Below are positions 2,326-62,527 of a DNA stretch of 64,000 bases, one piece after another (the stretch's first letter is position 1; each line of letters starts with the position of its first letter). This stretch comes from Candidatus Desulfatibia vada (GTDB lineage Bacteria > Desulfobacterota > Desulfobacteria > Desulfobacterales > UBA11574). The DNA lies in contig JACNIG010000247.1 of assembly GCA_014383215.1 (NCBI GenBank), positions 4,786 to 68,785 of the forward strand, in the 5' to 3' direction. A program made the position numbers and the translations under genes. The notes beneath the pieces were generated by a model that saw only the letters and a list, made by a program, of their open reading frames with translations, was not told the origin of the DNA and did no database searches.

Positions 2326-3720
2326 GAGTTATTGTCAAATGTTGTGTATGGCATTAGGCGGCGATCCGTTTTTCAATAATGCCGTCAACAAACTTTATTC
2401 CTCTGATTACTTCTCCAAGGCGCTCAGAATGGTGCAATCTGTTCCATCTTTTCTGAGCACAGCGACATAGCTGGAATGCCATGGTTAATACAGTTAAAGA
2501 TGAAAAACAGCTCCTGACCTTGTTCGTTCTCAGCCGGACGGTAGAAAACGTTGATTCTATCGGATTGGTCGTCCGAATATGTATCCAGTGTTCTGCCGGA
2601 AAATCGTAAAAAGTTAAAAGTACATCTCGGTCCTTTTGTAAACAGGCAGTGGCCTTGGGATATTTAGCCTCATAGGTCTGGGTAAACGCATCAAAATTAT
2701 GCTCGGCTTCAGCCTTGTTATCTGCCATCCAGATTTGATGTAATTTCTCTTTTGCCTTAGCCTGAAGGCTCTTTGGCAATTTATTTAAAACATTGGCCGT
2801 TTTGTGAACCCAGCATCTTTGCCAACGGGTTGTGTCGTATACCTTTGACAGAGCTTTCCAGAAGCCCAAAGAACCATCCCCAACGGCCAACTCTGGAGGC
2901 GTATGTAGCCCTCTGCGTTTTAGGTCGACAAGTACCTCAAGCCAGGACTGCTCGCTTTCCCGGAAGCCGCCTTCAATAGCGATCAGCTCTTTATGACCTT
3001 TATCTGTGGCACCGATAATGACCAGAAGGCATTGACGGTCATCCATGCGGACATTGCAGTATATTCCATCGACCCAGAAATAAACATAGCGCTTCTTTGA
3101 AAGATCACGCTGCTGCCACTTAACATATTCATCCTGCCAAACCGTCTTGAGCCGGCTGATGGTTGAAGCAGATAGACCCGGCGCATCTTTACCTAACAGT
3201 GCAGCCAGGGCATCGGTAAAATCTCCGGTGGAGATTCCTTTTAAATACAGCCATGGCAGGAAAGTCTCGATACTTTTGGTTTTCCTTAAATACGGCGGCA
3301 AAATGGATGAAGTGAACCTAACTCTGTCGTTGAGCGAATCAGGTTGCCGATCTCGAATACGAGGAGCCCTTACCGGAATCTGACCAATACCTGTTTGGAT
3401 CTCACGTTCCGGGAGATAGCCATTTCGTACAATTCGCTGACATCCTTTGTCATCCGATATGTCTTTGTATTGGCTTAAAAAAGTTTCTATTTCTGCTTCT
3501 AAAGCGGCGGATAAAAGGCGCCGGGCTCCTTGTCGTAAAATATCTGTAATGGGGTCATCGACAAATGGTTCTGGCTTTTTTAAATCGATTACATTATCTT
3601 TGGCCATGGTGGTGTTATCCTTTCATTTTGGTAGTTCAAAATGCCGAGCTGTTGCTTGCAAAACAATCGCTCGGAGGATACACCACCTAATCCCTTAAAC
3701 ACAACTTTTGATCATATCTC
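2326..3720 (-). mobile_element. IS256-family insertion sequence (~1395 bp), apparently intact
   Basis: It contains a single mutator-type transposase ORF. The imperfect terminal inverted repeats are GAGTTATTGTCAAATGTTGTGTATGG (left) and the reverse complement of the right end, GAGATATGATCAAAAGTTGTGTTTAAGG. It is flanked by the 9-bp direct repeat ACTGTCACC. Confidence 0.85.
2354..3607 (-). CDS. IS256-family (mutator-type) transposase
   Basis: 417 aa. The sequence is typical of IS256 transposases: ...YLPEREIQTGIG.., WVDGIY.., LLVIIGA...G.KE, RCWVHKTANVL, NPIES.F. Confidence 0.93.
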   Translation of the reverse strand: MAKDNVIDLKKPEPFVDDPITDILRQGARRLLSAALEAEIETFLSQYKDISDDKGCQRIVRNGYLPEREIQTGIGQIPVRAPRIRDRQPDSLNDRVRFTSSILPPYLRKTKSIETFLPWLYLKGISTGDFTDALAALLGKDAPGLSASTISRLKTVWQDEYVKWQQRDLSKKRYVYFWVDGIYCNVRMDDRQCLLVIIGATDKGHKELIAIEGGFRESEQSWLEVLVDLKRRGLHTPPELAVGDGSLGFWKALSKVYDTTRWQRCWVHKTANVLNKLPKSLQAKAKEKLHQIWMADNKAEAEHNFDAFTQTYEAKYPKATACLQKDRDVLLTFYDFPAEHWIHIRTTNPIESTFSTVRLRTNKVRSCFSSLTVLTMAFQLCRCAQKRWNRLHHSERLGEVIRGIKFVDGIIEKRIAA

Positions 3721-5001: not shown

Positions 5002-7143
5002 TCAGCCGCGCATCCAAGCGTGATACCGCTCCACCCAGCTAAGGAGTTTTTCCGGTGCATTGGCTTTCTTCCATTGGCCGGCGGCAAATTTGTTGGCTTC
5101 CGCCAAGGTGGGATAGATATGAATGGTCCCCAGGATTTTATTCAAGCCCAACCCGTTTTTCATGGCAAGGATATATTCCGCGATGATGTCGCTGGCATGC
5201 GTCCCGACAATAGTAACACCCAAGATTTTATCGGTGCCGGGTTTTGTCAATACCTTTACCAGACCGTGATCTTCAGAATCGGCAATAGCCCGGTCCAGAT
5301 CGTCGATACCGTAGGTTGTGACCTCATAGTCCGTGTTGGTTTCCTTGGCTTCCAGTTCATTTAAACCGACACGGGCAACCTCGGGATCCGTGTATGTGGC
5401 CCAGGGAATGACGCGGTAATCGGCCCTGAACGATTTGAATCTTCCAAACAAGGCGTTTACCGAAGCATACCATGCCTGGTGGGCGGCGGTGTGTGTAAAC
5501 TGATAGGGTCCGGCAACATCGCCGGCGCAAAAAATGTTGGGATAATTCGTTCTAAGAAATTCATCGGTCTCTATGGTACCGTTGCGCTCTATCGCAACCC
5601 CCAGCTCTTCCAGACCAAAGCCTTTGGTATTGGCTACACGACCAACGGCAACCAGAATTTCGTCAAATTCAACAGAAACATCCTCTCCGTTATAATCGCA
5701 GATCAGGGTTTTTTGATCGCCGTCAACCCGCACCTCCTTGGCGCGATGATTGGTAAGCACACGCACGCCTTCCTGCTCAAATTTATTTTTCACAAGTTCG
5801 GAGATTTCTTCATCTTCGCGCAACAGGATGCGGGGTGCCATCTCGACCTGGGAAACCTGTGCACCTAAGCGGGCAAAAGCCTGGGAAAGCTCGCAACCAA
5901 TGGGCCCGCCGCCTAAAACAACGAGCCGTCCGGGGAGTTTGCGAAGCTGCCAGACATTGTCGGAAGTCAGGTATTCGATTTTATCCAGCCCCGCAATGGG
6001 GGGAACAAAGGGGCGCGCGCCGGTAGCAACAACGATATTGCGGGTAGTAATAACCTTGCCGTTCACTTCGACGGTATAGGGTGAAGTGACCATGGCTTCA
6101 CCCTGGATGCAATCCACACCAAGTTCGGTATAACGCTCCACAGAATCGTGAGGTTCAATTTTTTTAATGATCCTCTGAACCCTCTCCATGACATCGGCAA
6201 AGTCAAATTCAATTTCACCGCGTTTAAAACCAAATTCGGCCGACCGCCTGGCATACGATAACATTTTTGCGGATCTAAGCAGTGCTTTGCTCGGTACGCA
6301 GCCGGTATTCAGGCAGTCACCCCCCATTTTGTGCTTTTCGATCAAAGCCACTTTGGCCTTTACTGCCGCTGCAATGTATGCCGTCACCAGTCCCGCCGAT
6401 CCCGCGCCGATGACTACAAGATTGTAGTCGAATTTTTGCGGGCGGGTATAGTTGGCCAATACCTGGCGTGCTTTTATAAAGGCTACAAGCTTTTTGGCTA
6501 CCAGGGGAAAAATGCCAAGCAGCACAAAAGATAACAAAATTTCGAAAGAAAGAATCCCCTTGAGCGACTCGATCTTTACTAACTGAGTGCCGGCATTGAC
6601 ATATACGAAAGTGCCGGGGAGCATACCTACCTGACTTACAATGTAAAACATAACCGTACGGATGGGGGTCAGTCCCATTACAAGATTAATGACAAAAAAC
6701 GGAAAAATAGGCACCAACCGCAATGTAAAAAGATAAAACGGCCCGTCCTTTGTAAACCTCTCGTTAACCGCTTTGAGCTTATCACCGAATTTATTTTGGA
6801 CATAATCTCTCAGCAGGAATCGGGATACCAAAAAGGCTAAGGTTGCGCCGATGGAACTTGCAAAAGAAACCATAAGCAGCCCTGTCCAGATGCCAAAAAG
6901 GGCTCCTCCTGCCAATGACATTACGGTGGCACCCGGCAGGGACAAGGCCGTGACCGCAATATACATGGCCATATAGCCACCCACCGTCAGCGCCTGATTA
7001 TTAGCATAGTAATTTTCAAACACTTGCTGTTGGGACTTCAAATGCGTTAAGGTAAGGTATTGCTGCAGGTCGAATGCATAGAAAAGGTATGCCAGCAGGA
7101 CAATCGCCAATAAAAGAATAATTTTTGACCATTTGGGTTTCAT
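5002..7143 (-). CDS. fusion of a TVP38/TMEM64 (DedA/SNARE-associated) membrane domain with an FAD-dependent pyridine nucleotide-disulfide oxidoreductase
   Basis: The ORF track gives 744 aa; the likely start is MKPKWSK at 7143. The N-terminal ~230 aa are multi-TM. These are followed by VVIGAGSAG, the redox-active GGDCLNTGCVPSK, VLGGGPIGCE and a C-terminal dimerisation domain. Confidence 0.85.
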   Translation of the reverse strand: MKPKWSKIILLLAIVLLAYLFYAFDLQQYLTLTHLKSQQQVFENYYANNQALTVGGYMAMYIAVTALSLPGATVMSLAGGALFGIWTGLLMVSFASSIGATLAFLVSRFLLRDYVQNKFGDKLKAVNERFTKDGPFYLFTLRLVPIFPFFVINLVMGLTPIRTVMFYIVSQVGMLPGTFVYVNAGTQLVKIESLKGILSFEILLSFVLLGIFPLVAKKLVAFIKARQVLANYTRPQKFDYNLVVIGAGSAGLVTAYIAAAVKAKVALIEKHKMGGDCLNTGCVPSKALLRSAKMLSYARRSAEFGFKRGEIEFDFADVMERVQRIIKKIEPHDSVERYTELGVDCIQGEAMVTSPYTVEVNGKVITTRNIVVATGARPFVPPIAGLDKIEYLTSDNVWQLRKLPGRLVVLGGGPIGCELSQAFARLGAQVSQVEMAPRILLREDEEISELVKNKFEQEGVRVLTNHRAKEVRVDGDQKTLICDYNGEDVSVEFDEILVAVGRVANTKGFGLEELGVAIERNGTIETDEFLRTNYPNIFCAGDVAGPYQFTHTAAHQAWYASVNALFGRFKSFRADYRVIPWATYTDPEVARVGLNELEAKETNTDYEVTTYGIDDLDRAIADSEDHGLVKVLTKPGTDKILGVTIVGTHASDIIAEYILAMKNGLGLNKILGTIHIYPTLAEANKFAAGQWKKANAPEKLLSWVERYHAWMRG

Positions 7144-7375
7144 ATCAACACCTGTATACCATTGTATGCTCTTTTTCTTACAATATAATAAGGCTTCACT
7201 GATAAGCAACCAGCCCGCATTTATCATAAAGGGCATTAAACAAAAAAGAAATTTTTATTTTTTACAAAACAATCAATAATGTATGCTATATTCTGGAAAA
7301 AGCAATGCTCGGCATTTAGCAGTAGTTTAAATATAATTATCGTTTAGATAATACCTTGTGAAATCAGGTGTTTTC

Positions 7376-11297: not shown

Positions 11298-11669
11298 TTA
11301 CTTTTTTACCGCCAATAACTCCTGCTGAGATTGAGAATCCTGAGATGTAATGCAATTTACCTGAGCGTTTAAAACCCCCCCGGCTTCCACGACAAAATCT
11401 TTACAGACTACTTTACCCGAACAGTTTCCGGTAGAAAGGATAATCAATTCCTTTGAAGCTCTGATCTCTCCTTCAAACGTTCCGCCAATGGTCATACTGG
11501 AAGCTTTTGTATCTGCAAAAACCTTCCCTTCCTCGGCAATAATTACGGTTTCCCCGATAAGCGTCCCCTTGACAACCCCTTTTATCACCAGCTTACCTTT
11601 GCTGGAAATAGTACCGTCAACCGTCAACTCTTTGTCAATGATGGAAAAGTCTTTGGATTTATTTTTCAT
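11298..11669 (-). CDS. bactofilin (polymer-forming cytoskeletal protein, DUF583)
   Basis: 123 aa with the repetitive beta-helix pattern ...VDGTISSKGKLVIKGVVKGTLIGETVIIAEEGKVFADTKASSMTIGGTFEGEI... Confidence 0.85.
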   Translation of the reverse strand: MKNKSKDFSIIDKELTVDGTISSKGKLVIKGVVKGTLIGETVIIAEEGKVFADTKASSMTIGGTFEGEIRASKELIILSTGNCSGKVVCKDFVVEAGGVLNAQVNCITSQDSQSQQELLAVKK

Positions 11670-13503
11670 TATGCGTCTCCCGCGAACAATTTAAAGTAAC
11701 TGAACCGAGGAATATTTTATCACGCTCAATTTCCAGGCGATAACTACATGATGCTTTGTCTGCATCGCTGTTTGCTATGTTGTTTATCGCCATAGGCTTG
11801 CCAATATCTACAGGCCGCCTAACAGCATCGGAACCGGCGATAAAGGCCTTTACGCCCGCATTCCGAACAACATTAGTACTTATATCAAACAGCTTCAAAG
11901 GCGTATCCACATCCACCAAAGCCGTGTCACCGGGAGTCAAACCGCGCAGCTCGCCGTTTTCCGTCCCTATAACGACGTATTTCAGAACCGGGTCTTCAAG
12001 ATCAAAGAATAGTTTTCCGATGATATCACCATTATTTTCAACGATCATTTGATAATACTTCCCTCTTTTCCCCAAAGAATAGCTTTTCCACAAATCTCGG
12101 CCTGTATTGATGACATATCCACGATCCTCACCGGTGTTATTGTCAGGAGCTCCCACATACCCCTTAAGATTAACTATCATTTCGGAAGGATTGCCAATAT
12201 CTGAAATTACGTCAACAATTTCAACTTTGTCACCTTTTACGAGCTTGACGTGCTCTTCATTTTCAAAGATACGTTCATCGCCGTTAATTTTGATCTTATA
12301 TAAAAGTATGCCCGAGCCTGTTTTTTTTTGATCTGATACGGCGGCTTCAGCGACTAATTTCTTCCCGCCGCCTATTATTTTTATATTGATGCTGCCGCAT
12401 GCATAGTAATCTTTGCGCACAATAATTTTTGTGGGTTTTGTGATAGAGATTTTCTTACGTATATCGCTTACGGTTCCGTAACCGGCAATATCGGCAGTCA
12501 GTCCGCGCTTATAGTTGGACTCAATATGAGATATCATAATCGTATCACCGGCCTCGATCGACAGTGGCTGCCCGTCCTTGACTACCACGGGCAGAGAATC
12601 GTTGATCGAAATGACCAGATAGTTGAGTACCGGACGCTCAAGCTTAATTCCCGGTGTTTCGGGTACAATCCCCAATCTATCCATAAAGGCATTGATGGTA
12701 AGATTATGATGGCGAATCTTTTGCTCCATGGAAAGAGATTTGCTGCTTTCAATTCCAAAAGCCGGAATTCCATATGTATATAAAGCATAATATGTGGCGG
12801 ATTTTCGTTGTTCTTTATGCAGGGAACTGACTTCCTGTGTTCTGTGGTTGTTGAAATGAAAATGGTTGCGGGGATTTTTTATTTTTTTATTGATCTCCTG
12901 ACTGACAAACCTTGCCATTTCGCCCAGATGGATCGTTTTCCCGGTTTTAGGATCCACATAAGTATCGACGTCTGCAATAATCGACTGGCCATACCTTTTC
13001 GGGTTTCTATGGGGTCCTTCCCATTTTGCGGAATAAAAACCGGAACCTTCATGCAAATTAAGCAGGCAATCACTCTCACTGATCAGCTTTTTTAGAATTG
13101 CAACAATTTCGGTTTCATAGTTGCTTTTGGGATCTTCGCCGAATTTCCGATTCATATCTTCATTTATCTTGCGACGCTTGGCCACTATGGATCGAAAGTT
13201 GGCTCTGGGTACGACAATAAGATTCCCTTTCGCCAGACTGGTATCGGCATAATGATCAACGGAAAGGTATCCCCCCGGCTCATCTCCCTGGATCCCGCCG
13301 ATAAGCAGCAGCGTTTTCCCGGGTTCTTTACCGTAGATTCTATATACGTTAAGTTCATAATCCGTACCTTCAAAAAAAGCGGTGTGTATCCTTTTCTGGG
13401 CACGGACAGAACCCGGCAGAATAAAAACAAGTGCAATCACAAAAATAATTGCTCCGGCTTTGACGTGCACGGCAAATCCGGCTCTGTTGACAGTTGGAAA
13501 CAC
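11659..13503 (-). CDS. Csd4/Pgp1-like (peptidase M99 / M14-related) metallocarboxypeptidase with a large C-terminal extension
   Basis: 614 aa with a signal/TM anchor. The catalytic-domain motifs are LLLIGGIQGDEPGG (Q-x-x-E instead of H-x-x-E, as I recall for Csd4), VVPRAN and LLNLHEGSGFY. Its 3' end overlaps the bactofilin start by 11 nt. Confidence 0.7.
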   Translation of the reverse strand: MFPTVNRAGFAVHVKAGAIIFVIALVFILPGSVRAQKRIHTAFFEGTDYELNVYRIYGKEPGKTLLLIGGIQGDEPGGYLSVDHYADTSLAKGNLIVVPRANFRSIVAKRRKINEDMNRKFGEDPKSNYETEIVAILKKLISESDCLLNLHEGSGFYSAKWEGPHRNPKRYGQSIIADVDTYVDPKTGKTIHLGEMARFVSQEINKKIKNPRNHFHFNNHRTQEVSSLHKEQRKSATYYALYTYGIPAFGIESSKSLSMEQKIRHHNLTINAFMDRLGIVPETPGIKLERPVLNYLVISINDSLPVVVKDGQPLSIEAGDTIMISHIESNYKRGLTADIAGYGTVSDIRKKISITKPTKIIVRKDYYACGSINIKIIGGGKKLVAEAAVSDQKKTGSGILLYKIKINGDERIFENEEHVKLVKGDKVEIVDVISDIGNPSEMIVNLKGYVGAPDNNTGEDRGYVINTGRDLWKSYSLGKRGKYYQMIVENNGDIIGKLFFDLEDPVLKYVVIGTENGELRGLTPGDTALVDVDTPLKLFDISTNVVRNAGVKAFIAGSDAVRRPVDIGKPMAINNIANSDADKASCSYRLEIERDKIFLGSVTLNCSRETHNEK

Positions 13504-13513
13504 TATTTTATCC

Positions 13514-14458
13514 TTATCCTTCCGTCGGTTCAGGAGGCGTTACTTGAACTGTTATGGGAATTTCACTCTCCAACAACAGCTTTCCATCTGCGTTATAAAT
13601 AAATATCGTTACATATTGAAAACGTTTCGGGTCACCCGAGTATTTGTGCTGAAATTTCACGGTTTTAAAACGGGCAATTGAAAAATATTGCCCCCTGCGG
13701 ATCCGGGAAGGCTTCCCTGATACAAAAGAGACAGACGGAATTGCAAACCATTGTTTCCGGTCATCCCTATCAATTTTTAATACCACAAAGGCATGCCCTG
13801 AAATCGTTTCTGTGTTCTGATCGGATTTTCTGAGTTTAAACGTTACCTTCAAGTTATTGGCTTCTAATGTATTCAAAACCATCAAATCTTCAATACTGAT
13901 CATTTGCGGTTCTGCATCCGGCATGCTTGGTTCGGAAATATCCTGTTCATCCCCTACAACCGCTGCAATTGCAGCCTCTTTTTCAGGCGGAACTTCTTTT
14001 ACGGTTTCAACAACTTTTTTAATATCCGGCGCTGGGGGTTTAATAGCTGCAGAAACGTATTTATCTTTAGACAGGTCCGTCTTTTTTTCAGTTGTTTTTT
14101 CTTCTGTCTCGATCCGGTCGGCTTTAATCTTCGCTTCAGCCAAGACCATACGAACCATAAGGAGTTCCTTTTCATCCTGCAGAGACTTTACCTTCTGTCG
14201 TGAAACTCCCAAAGCGTTTATCAGGCTCCTATTTTCTTCAGCTTCGCTGCTGTACAGAAAATAAAGACCCACCGCTAAAGCAACCACAATGAAAACCGCA
14301 AAAGTGAGTGTAATCGCAAGTCCTTTAAAGCGCTTGACCGGAATTACTTTTCCACGATCTCCTACGAACAAAAGGGTCCAGCGGCCGGCCCTCTTTTTTG
14401 GTTTCGGTACGGCGATCCCGTTTAACTCTTTTACCCGGTTTCCCGAAAGATGTTTCAT
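13514..14458 (-). CDS. hypothetical single-pass membrane protein with coiled-coil and acidic linker
   Basis: 314 aa with one TM (LTFAVFIVVALAVGLYFLY), a coiled-coil stretch and an unassigned C-terminal ~110-aa domain. Its stop lies 10 nt upstream of the carboxypeptidase start. Confidence 0.6.
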   Translation of the reverse strand: MKHLSGNRVKELNGIAVPKPKKRAGRWTLLFVGDRGKVIPVKRFKGLAITLTFAVFIVVALAVGLYFLYSSEAEENRSLINALGVSRQKVKSLQDEKELLMVRMVLAEAKIKADRIETEEKTTEKKTDLSKDKYVSAAIKPPAPDIKKVVETVKEVPPEKEAAIAAVVGDEQDISEPSMPDAEPQMISIEDLMVLNTLEANNLKVTFKLRKSDQNTETISGHAFVVLKIDRDDRKQWFAIPSVSFVSGKPSRIRRGQYFSIARFKTVKFQHKYSGDPKRFQYVTIFIYNADGKLLLESEIPITVQVTPPEPTEG

Positions 14459-48628: not shown

Positions 48629-48650
48629 CAAAATCGCTAAACGATTTTAT
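48629..48650. repeat. AAAATCG-loop-CGATTTT small hairpin (REP-like family), copy 1
   Basis: CAAAATCGCTAAACGATTTTAT lies immediately 3' of tRNA-Ser(GGA). Confidence 0.75.
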
Positions 48651-48739
48651 GGCGGAGAGAGAGGGATTCGAACCCTCGGTACCTTTACAGCACACACGAT
48701 TTCCAGTCGTGCTCCTTCGGCCAGCTCGGACATCTCTCC
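48650..48739 (-). tRNA. tRNA-Ser (anticodon GGA)
   Basis: Read by hand on the minus strand: GGAGAGATGTCCGAGCTGGCCGAAGGAGCACGACTGGAAATCGTG...long variable arm...GGTTCGAATCCCTCTCTCTCCGCCA. The anticodon loop is CT-GGA-AA, and CCA is encoded. Confidence 0.9.
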
Positions 48740-48743
48740 GCTT

Positions 48744-48797
48744 ATAAAATCGCAAAGCGATTTTGTAATTGCCAATAAAATCGCTAAACGATTTTAT
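48744..48797. repeat. two more AAAATCG-loop-CGATTTT hairpins between the two tRNA-Ser genes
   Basis: ATAAAATCGCAAAGCGATTTTGT (48744-48766) and ATAAAATCGCTAAACGATTTTAT (48775-48797). Confidence 0.75.
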
Positions 48798-48886
48798 TGG
48801 CGGAGAGGGCGAGATTCGAACTCGCGGAGGCAATTAACCTCAACAGTTTTCGAGACTGCCGCCTTAGACCACTCGGCCACCTCTCC
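48798..48886 (-). tRNA. tRNA-Ser (anticodon CGA)
   Basis: On the minus strand: GGAGAGGTGGCCGAGTGGTCTAAGGCGGCAGTCTCGAAAACTGT...long variable arm...GAGTTCGAATCTCGCCCTCTCCGCCA. The anticodon loop is CT-CGA-AA. Confidence 0.9.
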
Positions 48887-59334: not shown

Positions 59335-61173
59335 TCAGGCTTGTTCCCAGGTTACTCTGAGCACCTCCTGGTAAGTAGTAATTCCCTTCAACAGCTTCTC
59401 GATTGCATTTTTCCTGAGGGTGACCATACCCTCTGCGATGGCCTTGCGGGTAATCTTGGCGATATCGACATCAGCGGCCGTTAGTTCCTTTAAGGAGTCT
59501 GTGTACGGGAGAACCTCATAGATGCCGGACCTGCCCCGATAACCGGTATTGCGACAGCGTATGCACCCCTCTCCTTGATAAAGAGTTAATCGACCTTTTT
59601 TGCCCACATTCAGCCCCATGTTGACCAACTCTTCCGCATCGATTTCAAAGGATTCTTTGCAAAACTTGCAAATCACTCGAACCAGTCGCTGGGCCATAAT
59701 ACCCACCAATGTGGCTTGAATCATAAATGCAGGAGTCCCCAGATCCAAAAGCCGGGTGACCACGGAGGGCGCATCGTTGGTATGCAGCGTAGATAACACC
59801 AAGTGCCCCGTCAATGCCGCCTGGATGGCGCTTGCCGCCGTTTCCAGATCACGCATTTCCCCGATCATGATAATATCCGGATCCTGACGCAAAATCGTCC
59901 TGGTGATCGTTGCGAAAGTAATACCTACCGCCGGCTGTACCGCGATCTGGTTAAACTCTTCGTTAACCATTTCAATGGGGTCTTCTATGGTCGTAATGTT
60001 GATTTCAGGGGTTGAAAGAGTTTTGAGCGTCGAGTATAGAGTTGTCGATTTGCCGCTGCCGGTAGGGCCGCAGACCAGCGCCATTCCATGGGGCATTCTA
60101 ATAAATTGATTGTAACGCTCCAAATCCGCGGGGGTGAAGCCCAGCCCGCGCAAGTCCTGGAAAAGGATATCCGGGTCCATGAGCCTCATCACCATCTTCT
60201 CCCCAAACGCCACCGGAACCGTGGAAACCCGAATCTCGGCTTCCACACCGCCTTTATCGGTCTTGATCCTTCCGTCCTGAGGCCTGCGTTTTTCCGCCAT
60301 GTCCAGCCTGGACAGGGCCTTTATCCGGCTGATGATGGCGTTGTGAACTTTTTTGGGAAGCTTATAAACCAGGTGCAGAACGCCGTCAATCCGCATCCTC
60401 ACCTGAACTTCATCCCGCTTGGGCTCGATATGGATATCACTGGCCTTCTGGTCAAAGGCGTAGACAAGCAGGTGGTTGACGGCATTCACAATATGCTGGT
60501 CATTGGGCGGGAGCTCATCGGCCGATTTTAATTTAACATACTGTTCCAGGTTACCGAGATCGACTCCCCTGGTGGCGAACATGTCCTCTGCCATGGAAAT
60601 GGAGCGCTTGAAGCCGAAAAACTCATCGATGGACTTGATAATATCGGTTTTGGAACTGACAACCGTCTTGACCTTCAACTGGGTAACACGCGTAATGTCT
60701 TCAACGACCTCAACATTAAAGGGGTTGGAGGTAGCCACGGTCAGGCATCCATCGCTGATATCGATAGGCAGAACCAGGTGTCGCATGGCAAAGGTACGCG
60801 GAATGGTGGTAGTCACGACGTTGAGGTCCAGTTTGAGTGGATCGATCTTTTTGTACGCAATCTTCCATTTTTTGGCAAGGGTCTGGAAAATGATTTCTTC
60901 ATCCAGCGGCCAGGCACGGTTATCGGCCCTGCTCAACTCAAGGGAAACAATAACATCCACAATGGTGATGGGGTTGATTATCTTAAACTCGGTACGCGAG
61001 GAAGCCAGGCGCTGGGCCCGCTGTCGCTCCAGCTTCTCACGGACGGCATCCTTTCTCCTGTAAATCTTCTTTACCTCGGCATCTGTCACCAGACCGCTTT
61101 CCAGAAGGGTTTGGCATACATTTTCCACGGAAAAGGGATTGCCTGAATCATTTTTTTTCTTTGCAGGTTTCAT
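59335..61173 (-). CDS. pilB: GspE/PilB-family secretion ATPase (type IV pilus assembly ATPase-like)
   Basis: 612 aa with a GspE_N domain, the Walker A motif CGPTGSGKST, the Asp/His boxes and the tetracysteine C..C...C..C. Confidence 0.88.
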   Translation of the reverse strand: MKPAKKKNDSGNPFSVENVCQTLLESGLVTDAEVKKIYRRKDAVREKLERQRAQRLASSRTEFKIINPITIVDVIVSLELSRADNRAWPLDEEIIFQTLAKKWKIAYKKIDPLKLDLNVVTTTIPRTFAMRHLVLPIDISDGCLTVATSNPFNVEVVEDITRVTQLKVKTVVSSKTDIIKSIDEFFGFKRSISMAEDMFATRGVDLGNLEQYVKLKSADELPPNDQHIVNAVNHLLVYAFDQKASDIHIEPKRDEVQVRMRIDGVLHLVYKLPKKVHNAIISRIKALSRLDMAEKRRPQDGRIKTDKGGVEAEIRVSTVPVAFGEKMVMRLMDPDILFQDLRGLGFTPADLERYNQFIRMPHGMALVCGPTGSGKSTTLYSTLKTLSTPEINITTIEDPIEMVNEEFNQIAVQPAVGITFATITRTILRQDPDIIMIGEMRDLETAASAIQAALTGHLVLSTLHTNDAPSVVTRLLDLGTPAFMIQATLVGIMAQRLVRVICKFCKESFEIDAEELVNMGLNVGKKGRLTLYQGEGCIRCRNTGYRGRSGIYEVLPYTDSLKELTAADVDIAKITRKAIAEGMVTLRKNAIEKLLKGITTYQEVLRVTWEQA

Positions 61174-61340
61174 ATATTAAGTATAAAGTACACTTTGTGC
61201 ATTTTGTGGCAAAAAATTTTATAACACCATGTGATGCCTTTATGGAAAAGATACTTGATGCTGGTTTCAGGATACTGGATTACAGTTTGTCCGAATTCGG
61301 ATATTTGATTATATAGAAATGAGGGGGTGGTGTCAATTGT

Positions 61341-61368
61341 GATGAATCCTATTTTTTACGGATTCATC
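61341..61368. repeat. GATGAATCC-loop-GGATTCATC hairpin (variant of the GATGAATTCG family)
   Basis: GATGAATCCTATTTTTTACGGATTCATC overlaps the stop codon of the DsbA-like gene. Confidence 0.7.
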
Positions 61369-62224
61369 AATTAGGTGTTTTCTCGATTTTTTCCAATTCT
61401 TTATCGATAAGATCCTGAAATCCTTTAAGGGTCCGGCTCCTCAATTGTTTGCCGTTGATAAAGACAGTAGGGGTGCCTCGAACTCCTGCCGCGGTACCGT
61501 CCTGCACGTCCTGCCTGATCCTTGACAATATCCCGGGATCGGCCATCTGCTTTTCGAATTCAGCGGTTTTATAGCCCAGCTCCCGGGCGATATCTTTGAT
61601 TTTTTGATCATTGATATGATTGAAATCGGCAAAAAGCCGGTCGTGAAATTCCCAGAATTTTCCCTGGACATCGGCCGCCAGGGCACCCATGGCGGCCTTG
61701 GCGGCATATTGGTGGTTGCGCAGTGGAAAGTTTTTAAAAACAAGCTTCACTTTTTCAGGATTGTTCTTGAGCACCTGCTCAAACAGCGGCACAAGCAGCG
61801 CGCAGTACTTTCACTGAAAATCGCTGAAAACAGCGATCACCACGGGTGCATCCGCCGGTCCTTTAAACGGAGAGTTGGAGGTGTCGATCTTTTGGATAAA
61901 ATCGATCACCAGGATGTCAATGGTCTGGTTGTTCCGGCTCTTGAGCAGCAGCATGTCCTCTTGTGGACCGACTTTTATTTGATCGATATGCTTGCCGACT
62001 ACGATTTTGTCTTGCAGCTTACCGTCCGCCGCATAGATCAATATCTCGCCGGTCTCGGTAAGTACAAAAATTTGCTTTCCATCCGCAGAAACAGCAACAT
62101 CAACCGGCGGCTTATTCATTTTTATCGTTTTTTGGATATCCCATTCAACAACAGCAAAGCTGCCGGCAACAAAAATCGAAACGATCAATATTGACAGCAG
62201 GCATACGGCTATTATTCGTTTCAT
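61367..62224 (-). CDS. secreted DsbA-like thiol:disulfide oxidoreductase, probable selenoprotein (in-frame TGA at 61811-61813 read as Sec; U-x-x-C centre)
   Basis: Track ORFs 61811..62224 and 61367..61792 are in the same frame, separated by one TGA and six sense codons. The read-through junction is VVIAVFSDFQ-U-KYCALLVPLFEQ, so the TGA sits at the first Cys position of the thioredoxin-fold CxxC. A signal peptide is present, and the C-terminal half is DsbA-like (FKNFPL, RGTPTVFING). Confidence 0.7.
61767..61798 (-). promoter_or_regulatory. candidate bacterial SECIS region downstream of the in-frame UGA
   Basis: The mRNA reads UGA AAG UAC UGC GCG CUG CUU GUG CCG CUG UUU GAG CAG GUG CUC AAG. 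Two alternative stem-loops are possible: CUGCU-14 nt-AGCAG, and UUGAGC-AGGU-GCUCAA (a 6-bp stem with a G-containing loop). Confidence 0.4.
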
Positions 62225-62527
62225 GCTGTAACCTTCTTTACCAAAATCAAGCTATAACCCTCAACCCGGACATACCGGAAAAGAAAAAGACCCCTTATCA
62301 CGAAAGCACGAAAGCGGAATTTTCGCCTCGCTGCAACAAGCAGCGGGGAATTCAAATTTATATTGGTTTTCAGGATTCCTTTCCGACTCAGTACTGGGTT
62401 ATTCAAAAGGTCCTTCCGGCACACTGAAACGGTTGTCCGGTTTGCCCGTTTACCGTGTTTTACACGGGCCTGGCGAACGTCTTTACCAGAGATCGGCTTG
62501 TTCAGATCATCCGGCATTATAATCAGA

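Follow-up and report, generated by a model that had tools for sequence, protein, structure and literature searches.

One gene or two? A probable selenocysteine codon in a two-domain DsbA-like gene of Candidatus Desulfatibia vada

When two open reading frames (ORFs) follow one another in a single frame, parted by a TGA and a handful of codons, are they two genes, one broken gene, or one intact gene in which UGA is read as selenocysteine (Sec)? The question is raised by a locus on the minus strand of a 64,000-nucleotide (nt) stretch of DNA from Candidatus Desulfatibia vada (contig JACNIG010000247.1), called the window here, to which at its full length all coordinates and strands refer. The upstream ORF (61811..62224, minus strand) starts with ATG, encodes 137 residues and ends in TGA at 61811-61813; the downstream ORF (61367..61792, minus strand), of 141 residues, starts with GTG in the same frame, with K Y C A L L as the six sense codons between that TGA and the GTG. 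Translated through the TGA, the junction reads ...VIAVFSDFQ-[TGA]-KYCALLVPLFEQVLK... or, in a longer excerpt, ...APVVIAVFSDFQ-[TGA]-KYCALLVPLFEQVLKNNPEKVKLVFKNFPL..., within a frame of 285 codons plus stop (61367..62224, minus strand) that, on its read-through translation and its alignment with homologues, encodes a secreted two-domain UxxC thiol-disulfide oxidoreductase. A sequence-only reading had proposed that the TGA replaces the first Cys of a CxxC motif to give a U-K-Y-C centre, that the second ORF alone would lack both a signal peptide and the active site, and that standard gene callers would split the gene. The shared frame, the six-codon gap and the junction as it was written out were confirmed from the sequence, the replaced Cys is borne out by homologue alignment, the second ORF does lack the signal peptide and the first redox residue, and gene callers do split the locus, both ORFs being annotated in public assemblies. 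The chances that the locus is a single gene with a genuine Sec codon are, in our estimate, about nine in ten.

The TGA is not a sequencing error, since an identical 137-residue ORF with the same TGA end occurs on 23 contigs from several samples, the six contigs listed coming from six different ones. Nor has UGA been reassigned to sense, since TGA is the ordinary stop of 11 of the 44 good ORFs in the window. The gene itself closes on TGA at 61367-61369, with another TGA next to it in frame (tandem TGA-TGA, 61364-61369, minus strand), so that the same codon would stand for Sec at 61811-61813 and for stop at the end of the gene. No further gene pair convincingly separated by an in-frame TGA emerged from a scan of the window.

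Whether the protein truly continues past the TGA is answered by its relatives. A large protein collection holds 476 homologues, the best of which (43-63% identity, about 285 residues) span both halves, and conservation runs across the junction without a break. The UGA at 61811-61813, read as selenocysteine 138 and thus as the nucleophilic first residue of U-K-Y-C, aligns with the first Cys of CxxC, a residue that 28 of 29 aligned homologues keep and one replaces by Ser; the second Cys never varies. When one genome per species was scanned, 80 related loci were recovered, and in 79 of them the codon could be mapped. Among 43 two-domain orthologues it is TGA in 26 and TGC or TGT in 17, and among 36 mapped single-domain relatives TGA in three and TGC or TGT in 33, so that 29 of the 79 mapped relatives from other species carry TGA at the redox codon and none carries TAA or TAG. 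The closest relative, L007, is 82% identical and also has TGA; between it and the window, nonsynonymous and synonymous divergence (dN/dS) amount to 0.071/0.413 (about 0.17) downstream of the TGA and 0.126/0.367 upstream, which indicates that the downstream half is translated in the same frame and is under purifying selection. Homologues had been expected, on the sequence-only reading, to show Cys or TGA at the codon and conservation beyond it; they do, purifying selection included, and no gene boundary appears.

The two-domain orthologues belong mostly to Desulfobacterota (Desulfobacterales, Desulfobulbia and Desulfuromonadia lineages) and include two records with other labels, one Nitrospirota and one Pseudomonadota, while the three single-domain TGA loci come from Acidobacteriota (L051), Myxococcota (L063) and Phycisphaerae (L065). 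A neighbour-joining tree does not separate the Sec forms from the Cys forms but intersperses them, which points to repeated switches between the two. In the window and its three nearest relatives the redox motif reads U-K-Y-C, and in most other Sec forms U-P-Y-C or U-P-H-C. Among the best 150 cluster representatives matching the N-terminal domain, 105 are short and 13 full-length, and 89 of the 105 short ones end exactly in D/E-F/Y-Q/E, the residue before the redox position; these are the ends expected of gene calls truncated at UGA, and they suggest that the subfamily mostly uses Sec and is mostly mis-split in public databases.

What, then, would instruct the ribosome to read this particular UGA as Sec? 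The sequence-only reading had placed stem-loops 15-45 nt downstream of the UGA, and two hairpins do lie there, at +12..+25 and +28..+45. The farther one, hairpin 2 (61766..61783, minus strand; UUUGAGC-AGGU-GCUCAAG), has a stem of 7 base pairs (bp) with arms at 61777-61783 and 61766-61772 and a 4-nt loop at 61773-61776; it starts 27 nt past the UGA, and the UGA-to-loop spacing is 34 nt. Its consensus in the Sec-form two-domain loci is CUCGAGC-AGGU-GCUCGAG, and its occurrence follows the codon: at least six of the seven pairs form in all 26 Sec loci (mean 6.65/7; mean folding free energy, dG, -10.4 kcal/mol; loop AGGU or AGUU throughout), as against one of the 17 Cys loci (mean 3.1/7; mean dG -3.0 kcal/mol; loop varied). 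In Cys forms the same L-E/D-Q-V-L-E peptide is often encoded, yet the hairpin is missing; it is therefore not a by-product of the protein sequence. In a 24-sequence alignment 94% of cells are paired and five of the seven pairs vary on both sides, with compensatory changes such as GAG/CUC to CAG/CUG and GAGC/GCUC to GACC/GGUC; the observed values are not reached in any of 500 shuffles, pairing drops to 33-47% when the partners are shifted by 1-3 columns, and RNAalifold selects this helix.

Hairpin 2 also resembles what is understood of the bacterial selenocysteine insertion sequence (SECIS). Published bSECIS criteria describe a loop of 3-9 nt with G at position 1 or 2 and, as a rule, G or U next to it, a stem of 4-16 bp, a UGA-loop spacing of 16-37 nt and a minimum free energy (MFE) of -7.5 kcal/mol or lower (PMC13188914). 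The window copy, which retains the loop and all seven pairs, agrees with all four (4-nt AGGU, 7 bp, 34 nt, and -7.7 kcal/mol for the hairpin alone), with the energy only narrowly inside the limit. A SECIS check of the kind suggested with the sequence-only reading agreed with the bSECIS consensus and returned no Rfam SECIS family. Given that its loop is near-invariant and that it fits the bSECIS model, hairpin 2 is the likely docking site of the elongation factor SelB.

Between the UGA and hairpin 2 lies hairpin 1 (61786..61799, minus strand; GCUGC-UUGU-GCCGC), which begins 11 nt past the UGA in the window and 7-11 nt past it across Sec loci. Its sequence is variable and occurs in two registers, and in a fixed register only 57.5% of cells are paired; because of the two registers it was tested by folding energy, and the region concerned (columns 10-30) has a mean dG of -8.1 in 26 Sec loci and -2.1 in 17 Cys loci (Mann-Whitney p = 3.6e-7). 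Four of its five pairs vary on both sides, and covariation is seen at synonymous positions, where Arg AGG/CGG, for instance, changes together with Pro CCU/CCG. The recoding signal thus seems to comprise two hairpins rather than one, and hairpin 1 is probably an accessory element that sets spacing or pauses the ribosome.

The single-domain Sec relatives L051, L063 and L065 lack the AGGU hairpin. L065 has instead a hairpin of the form GGGUCG-GUC-CGACCC at a nearer position (about 12-30 nt after the TGA), those of L051 and L063 are one pair shorter, and in all three this is the only hairpin present, so that related genes seem to use different SECIS solutions.

Several observations weigh against so favourable a view of the signal. 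Hairpin 1 of the window has four of its five pairs and a U-C mismatch, and it occupies the position of the E. coli SECIS, which makes it a rival candidate for SelB binding. Hairpin 2 of the window is the weakest of its family, at -7.7 kcal/mol, and its 34-nt spacing comes close to the maximum that the consensus allows. When 60 nt from the UGA are folded without constraint, the MFE structure is a different one (-15.7 as against -11.9 for the two-hairpin form), and the pair probability of hairpin 2 is about 0.54. The 77 nt after the UGA fold no more stably than shuffled sequence (z = 0.36); the evidence for a recoding signal came only from comparison across loci, not from folding of a single sequence. 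No Rfam SECIS family matched, either in the whole window at the gathering threshold or in a permissive scan of 61700-61850, where the sole match, to the S6-S18 leader, is attributable to chance (E = 0.45). Finally, neither selA, selB or selD nor a tRNA-Sec gene (selC) was found within the 64-kb window, where tRNA genes were sought with ARAGORN and Rfam and about 40 ORFs were compared with NCBIfam and Pfam; ARAGORN returned two tRNA-Ser and no tRNA-Sec. That this genome decodes Sec is consequently something that we infer. The two tRNA-Ser genes stand in tandem at 48650-48886 (minus strand), with anticodons GGA and CGA.

Some of these observations speak for a reading in which the gene is a Sec gene by descent, but its UGA now mostly terminates translation or is read by a near-cognate tRNA for Cys or Trp, through lost machinery, scarce selenium or a weakened SECIS, with a truncated or selenium-free product. 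The window hairpin is the weakest in the family and has a competing fold, no sel genes were found in the 64-kb window, and Sec insertion is generally inefficient in bacteria. Nevertheless this reading appears improbable. The downstream half is under purifying selection in the comparison with the Sec-form L007, the window keeps the hairpin loop and 7/7 pairs, and with the first 14 nt occluded, as is assumed for the state in which the UGA is in the ribosomal A site, the fold of lowest energy is the two-hairpin form. The lineage, moreover, is rich in selenoproteins: Desulfobacterota are among the bacteria with most selenoprotein genes, and the Desulfobacteria and Desulfobulbia listed have 39-63 of them (PMC13326102, PMC1976440), so that Sec machinery is to be expected in the genome.

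An even smaller chance attaches to a pseudogene, in which a nonsense mutation of TGC or TGT to TGA has left the downstream part to decay. One base change would suffice, standard gene callers do split the locus, and the lack of Sec machinery in the window agrees with it. Decay, however, would not leave TGA at this codon in 26 of 43 orthologues of different species with never a TAA or TAG, nor a dN/dS after the TGA lower than the upstream value, a frame free of frameshifts and further stops, and a covarying hairpin that is tied to TGA and missing from Cys forms. That the locus holds two genes, for a secreted 137-residue propeller-fragment protein and a cytoplasmic truncated DsbA-like protein starting at the GTG at 61792, is hardly credible despite the two public ORF calls and the many database entries of about 137 residues, for the Cys-form homologues are single in-frame polypeptides, the 141-residue ORF is without signal peptide, first beta strand and redox nucleophile, and 89 of the 105 short entries end just where truncation at a Sec codon would end them.

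If a single Sec-decoding gene is the correct reading, then the gene at 61367-62224 would encode a periplasmic selenoprotein of 285 residues, exported by the Sec secretion pathway. A ribosome arriving at the UGA at 61811-61813 would insert selenocysteine instead of terminating, on a signal provided by mRNA structure that follows closely within the coding sequence. Hairpin 2 (61766-61783), with its 7 bp and its AGGU loop, would dock the SelB:GTP:Sec-tRNA(Sec) complex, and the variable hairpin between it and the UGA (61786-61799) would set the spacing or slow the ribosome. The product would consist, in order, of a signal peptide, a two-blade propeller fragment and a domain of the DsbA/BdbD/ScsC type; the propeller fragments of several chains would together close one propeller and so make the enzyme oligomeric, and at the U-K-Y-C redox centre Sec would be the attacking residue.

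How well does the protein itself support this picture? The signal peptide (62153..62224, minus strand; residues 1-24, MKRIIAVCLLSILIVSIFVAGSFA / VVEW), read from the sequence together with its cleavage site, looks like a substrate of signal peptidase I; structure models have an N-terminal helix over residues 2-19, and a hydrophobic N-terminus is conserved in homologues. A lipoprotein was considered and ruled out, Cys8 lying too early and no lipobox being present. The N-terminal domain that follows (61880..62149, minus strand; residues about 26-115) has seven beta strands, or approximately two blades of a YVTN-type beta-propeller. Its AlphaFold model, made from the window's own 137-residue ORF, is all-beta with a predicted local distance difference test (pLDDT) score of 90-96, and its Foldseek matches, at modest E-values (1e-4 to 1e-3), are beta-propellers only, among them the designed two- and three-blade self-assembling fragments 6r5z, 8pr9 and 6tjb. 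A family profile matches the YVTN surface-layer protein 1l0q over residues 27-105 (E = 1e-11), phmmer searches with the domain return giant multi-repeat proteins with 6-11 matched stretches each, and matches to Pfam and NCBIfam stay below the cutoffs. As modelled, the domain, which the sequence-only reading had left unassigned, is a two-blade YVTN-type propeller fragment and not a full propeller. Two blades cannot close a propeller, and an incomplete propeller is unlikely to be stable by itself; self-assembly is therefore to be expected, and by analogy the domains of several chains probably come together into one closed propeller, in which case the enzyme would be oligomeric.

The catalytic domain (61400..61879, minus strand; residues about 116-275) has a DsbA-like thioredoxin fold with a helical insert and a cis-Pro loop, G250-T251-P252, of which P252 is invariant and T251-P252 conserved in the homologue alignment. 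Scored on the read-through translation with U written as C, it reaches 87.3 bits against Pfam Thioredoxin_4 (PF13462; cutoff 23.2) and 73.8 against DSBA (PF01323; cutoff 25.6), and profile searches of the PDB return 3gyk (9e-28) and BdbD (3eu3, 4e-22), together with an actinobacterial DsbA (4pwo) and ScsC (4gxz, 4xvw, 6nen). The full-length model, which is that of the 63%-identical Cys homologue P0001, has a pLDDT of 94.6, places the redox motif directly before a helix at model residues 137-152, and superposes in Foldseek with target-normalised template modelling scores (TM-scores) of 0.85 on 3gyk and 0.83 on BdbD.

Not all relatives have kept this chemistry or this arrangement. Two full-length homologues, P0045 (DFQSAAC) and P0165 (DFQAPAC), have lost the nucleophile and, judging from these motifs, can presumably not act as ordinary redox catalysts. 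In the Myxococcota loci L057, L059, L073 and L085 a single frame carries a tandem pair of DsbA-like CxxC motifs, and the matches in the Myxococcota L063 and L083 are similarly long, the one mapped copy of L063 having TGA at the redox position.

Is such a protein new? That Sec-containing DsbA-like proteins had been reported from Deltaproteobacteria was noted in the sequence-only reading, and rightly so: UxxC selenoproteins of DsbA-like, DsbG-like and thiol:disulfide interchange type were described in 2005-2007, Deltaproteobacteria included (PMC1088965, PMC1794560, PMC1976440), and they are listed in a 2026 review (PMC13188914). The 'DsbA-like protein form 1' (PF01323) selenoproteins share with the window protein a DsbA-like fold and Sec in place of the first Cys of CxxC, and the catalogued family likewise has a SECIS hairpin with G in a small apical loop just after the UGA, members in Deltaproteobacteria, many Cys homologues and a history of routine mis-annotation. 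The original Sargasso Sea family, however, was assigned to COG2761 (PMC1088965), whereas the window protein scores best on PF13462, the BdbD/ScsC branch, and it is set apart by its propeller-fragment domain, which the catalogues consulted do not mention. The only curated NCBIfam selenoprotein model of DsbA/DsbG type that the scan returned, NF041057 (Rcas_1661 thioredoxin-like (seleno)lipoprotein, the 'DsbG-like' protein of the review), has a related UxxC/CxxC domain (E = 3e-20, residues 119-275), but the window protein falls outside the family at 72.7 bits against a cutoff of 190, aligning with profile positions 82-246 of 247 only, and differs in its N-terminal region and in having no lipobox. 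Membership in DsbG (20.9 bits against 124) and DsbC (18.8 against 215) was likewise rejected, the matches being confined to short active-site stretches. With no NCBIfam model reaching its cutoff here, pipelines that rely on NCBIfam will probably miss the Sec codon.

In both sequence and structure the catalytic domain is matched best by BdbD of B. subtilis (3eu3), the Silicibacter protein 3gyk and the actinobacterial DsbA/MdbA/TsdA proteins, which share its thioredoxin fold, helical insert and Thr-cisPro loop but have Cys rather than Sec and no propeller domain. An extra N-terminal domain in front of the DsbA-like domain is, by comparison, a feature of ScsC (Proteus, Caulobacter), Wolbachia alpha-DsbA2 and Salmonella BcfH, and the catalytic domain resembles those of all three in profile and Foldseek matches (PDB 4xvw, 7rgv, 6eez, 7jve). 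The N-terminal modules of ScsC, BcfH and alpha-DsbA2 are alpha-helical trimerisation stalks; a stalk of this type was considered for the window protein and rejected, its N-terminal domain being all-beta with seven strands. BcfH, a trimeric disulfide isomerase rather than an oxidase, is encoded in a fimbrial operon, much as the window gene stands beside pilus genes. Similarly, PmScsC, CcScsC and alpha-DsbA2 are described as homotrimeric disulfide isomerases and not oxidases (PMC5524982, PMC8900818, PMC6450060). All of these proteins have Cys where the window protein would have Sec, and the oligomeric state that is described for them is for the window protein a prediction.

As to the recoding signal, the fdhF-type SECIS of E. 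coli and the bSECISearch model likewise place a stem-loop in the coding sequence right after the UGA, with a small loop containing G and then G or U, and the AGGU loop of hairpin 2 resembles that of fdhF. The window differs in having two tandem Sec-specific hairpins, the conserved one lying 34 nt from the UGA, and in its want of an Rfam match. The locus adds a new member to the DsbA-like UxxC selenoproteins and probably represents an undescribed two-domain subfamily of them. A more ambitious proposal, to which we give rather less than even odds, is that of a subfamily in which a propeller hub arrays Sec-DsbA domains and a two-part signal directs Sec insertion, with Sec the commoner and probably the ancestral form and most database entries being halves of the real proteins. 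Were this proposal true, the hub could be, for example, a trimer of six blades or a tetramer of eight, a new design for an oligomeric disulfide isomerase or reductase, and the Sec signal would combine a variable hairpin at the ribosome entrance with a conserved AGGU hairpin at a spacing of 34 nt.

What might the enzyme do? From its sequence it is predicted to catalyse thiol-disulfide exchange in the envelope, and, given the analogy with the oligomeric DsbA-like enzymes (ScsC, BcfH, alpha-DsbA2) and the anaerobic lineage, it would more likely reduce or reshuffle disulfides there than act as a primary oxidase. The gene is flanked by a PilY1-like gene and a 115-residue ORF on one side and by an MshE/PilB-type ATPase gene on the other, and a similar arrangement of type IV pilus genes is kept in L007; since the gene lies among pilus genes both here and in its closest relative, pilus proteins are candidate substrates. 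These functional suggestions call for caution: both the oligomerisation and the isomerase or reductase activity are drawn only from analogy; neighbour clustering of 45 loci found the pilus context common only to the window and L007, so that a pilus-specific role would be at most local to this lineage; and more distant orthologues lie between tig-clpP-clpX and phoH-ybeY. No neighbour resembling DsbB, VKOR or DsbD was seen in the same 45 loci.

The immediate surroundings of the gene merit some comment. A 98-residue ORF at 62221-62517 (minus strand), annotated as a gene in some public assemblies, overlaps the selenoprotein gene's start codon by 4 nt and occupies the upstream gap of about 300 nt; it has no family match and is seen only in contigs identical to the window, and is therefore probably spurious. 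The gap itself may be a long leader or regulatory region. On the other side, a perfect sigma-70 consensus promoter (TTGACA, 17 nt, TATAAT; 12/12) at 61308-61336 (minus strand) sits between the stop of the selenoprotein gene and the MshE/PilB-type ATPase gene (59335-61173), and because of it the ATPase gene may have a strong promoter of its own instead of being co-transcribed with the selenoprotein gene.

Farther away in the window, an IS256-family transposase gene (323 bits; 2354-3607, minus strand) adjoins a pair of glycosyltransferase genes of the arsenosugar-biosynthesis type (291-1672), and 5002-7236 (minus strand) encodes a FAD-dependent pyridine-nucleotide-disulfide oxidoreductase of 744 residues, similar to MerA or dihydrolipoyl dehydrogenase, with an N-terminal extension of about 265 residues. 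Adjacent ORFs of 614 and 314 residues at 11659-14458 (minus strand) have no NCBIfam match at E <= 1e-6.

Current knowledge is not overturned by these findings, and their consequences lie rather in what they add. Two ORFs of the kind labelled 'hypothetical' and 'thioredoxin-domain' are in all likelihood one selenoprotein gene, and the same would hold for most public members of the subfamily. With some 40% of orthologues switched to Cys, the subfamily offers a natural set for comparing Sec with Cys, and the paired loci would make a clean training set for bacterial SECIS models while raising the question of recoding by two hairpins. The propeller-fragment domain suggests a new mode of oligomerisation for DsbA-like enzymes. 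More broadly, a secreted, Sec-dependent disulfide enzyme would be added to the envelope redox toolkit of the anaerobic Desulfobacterota.

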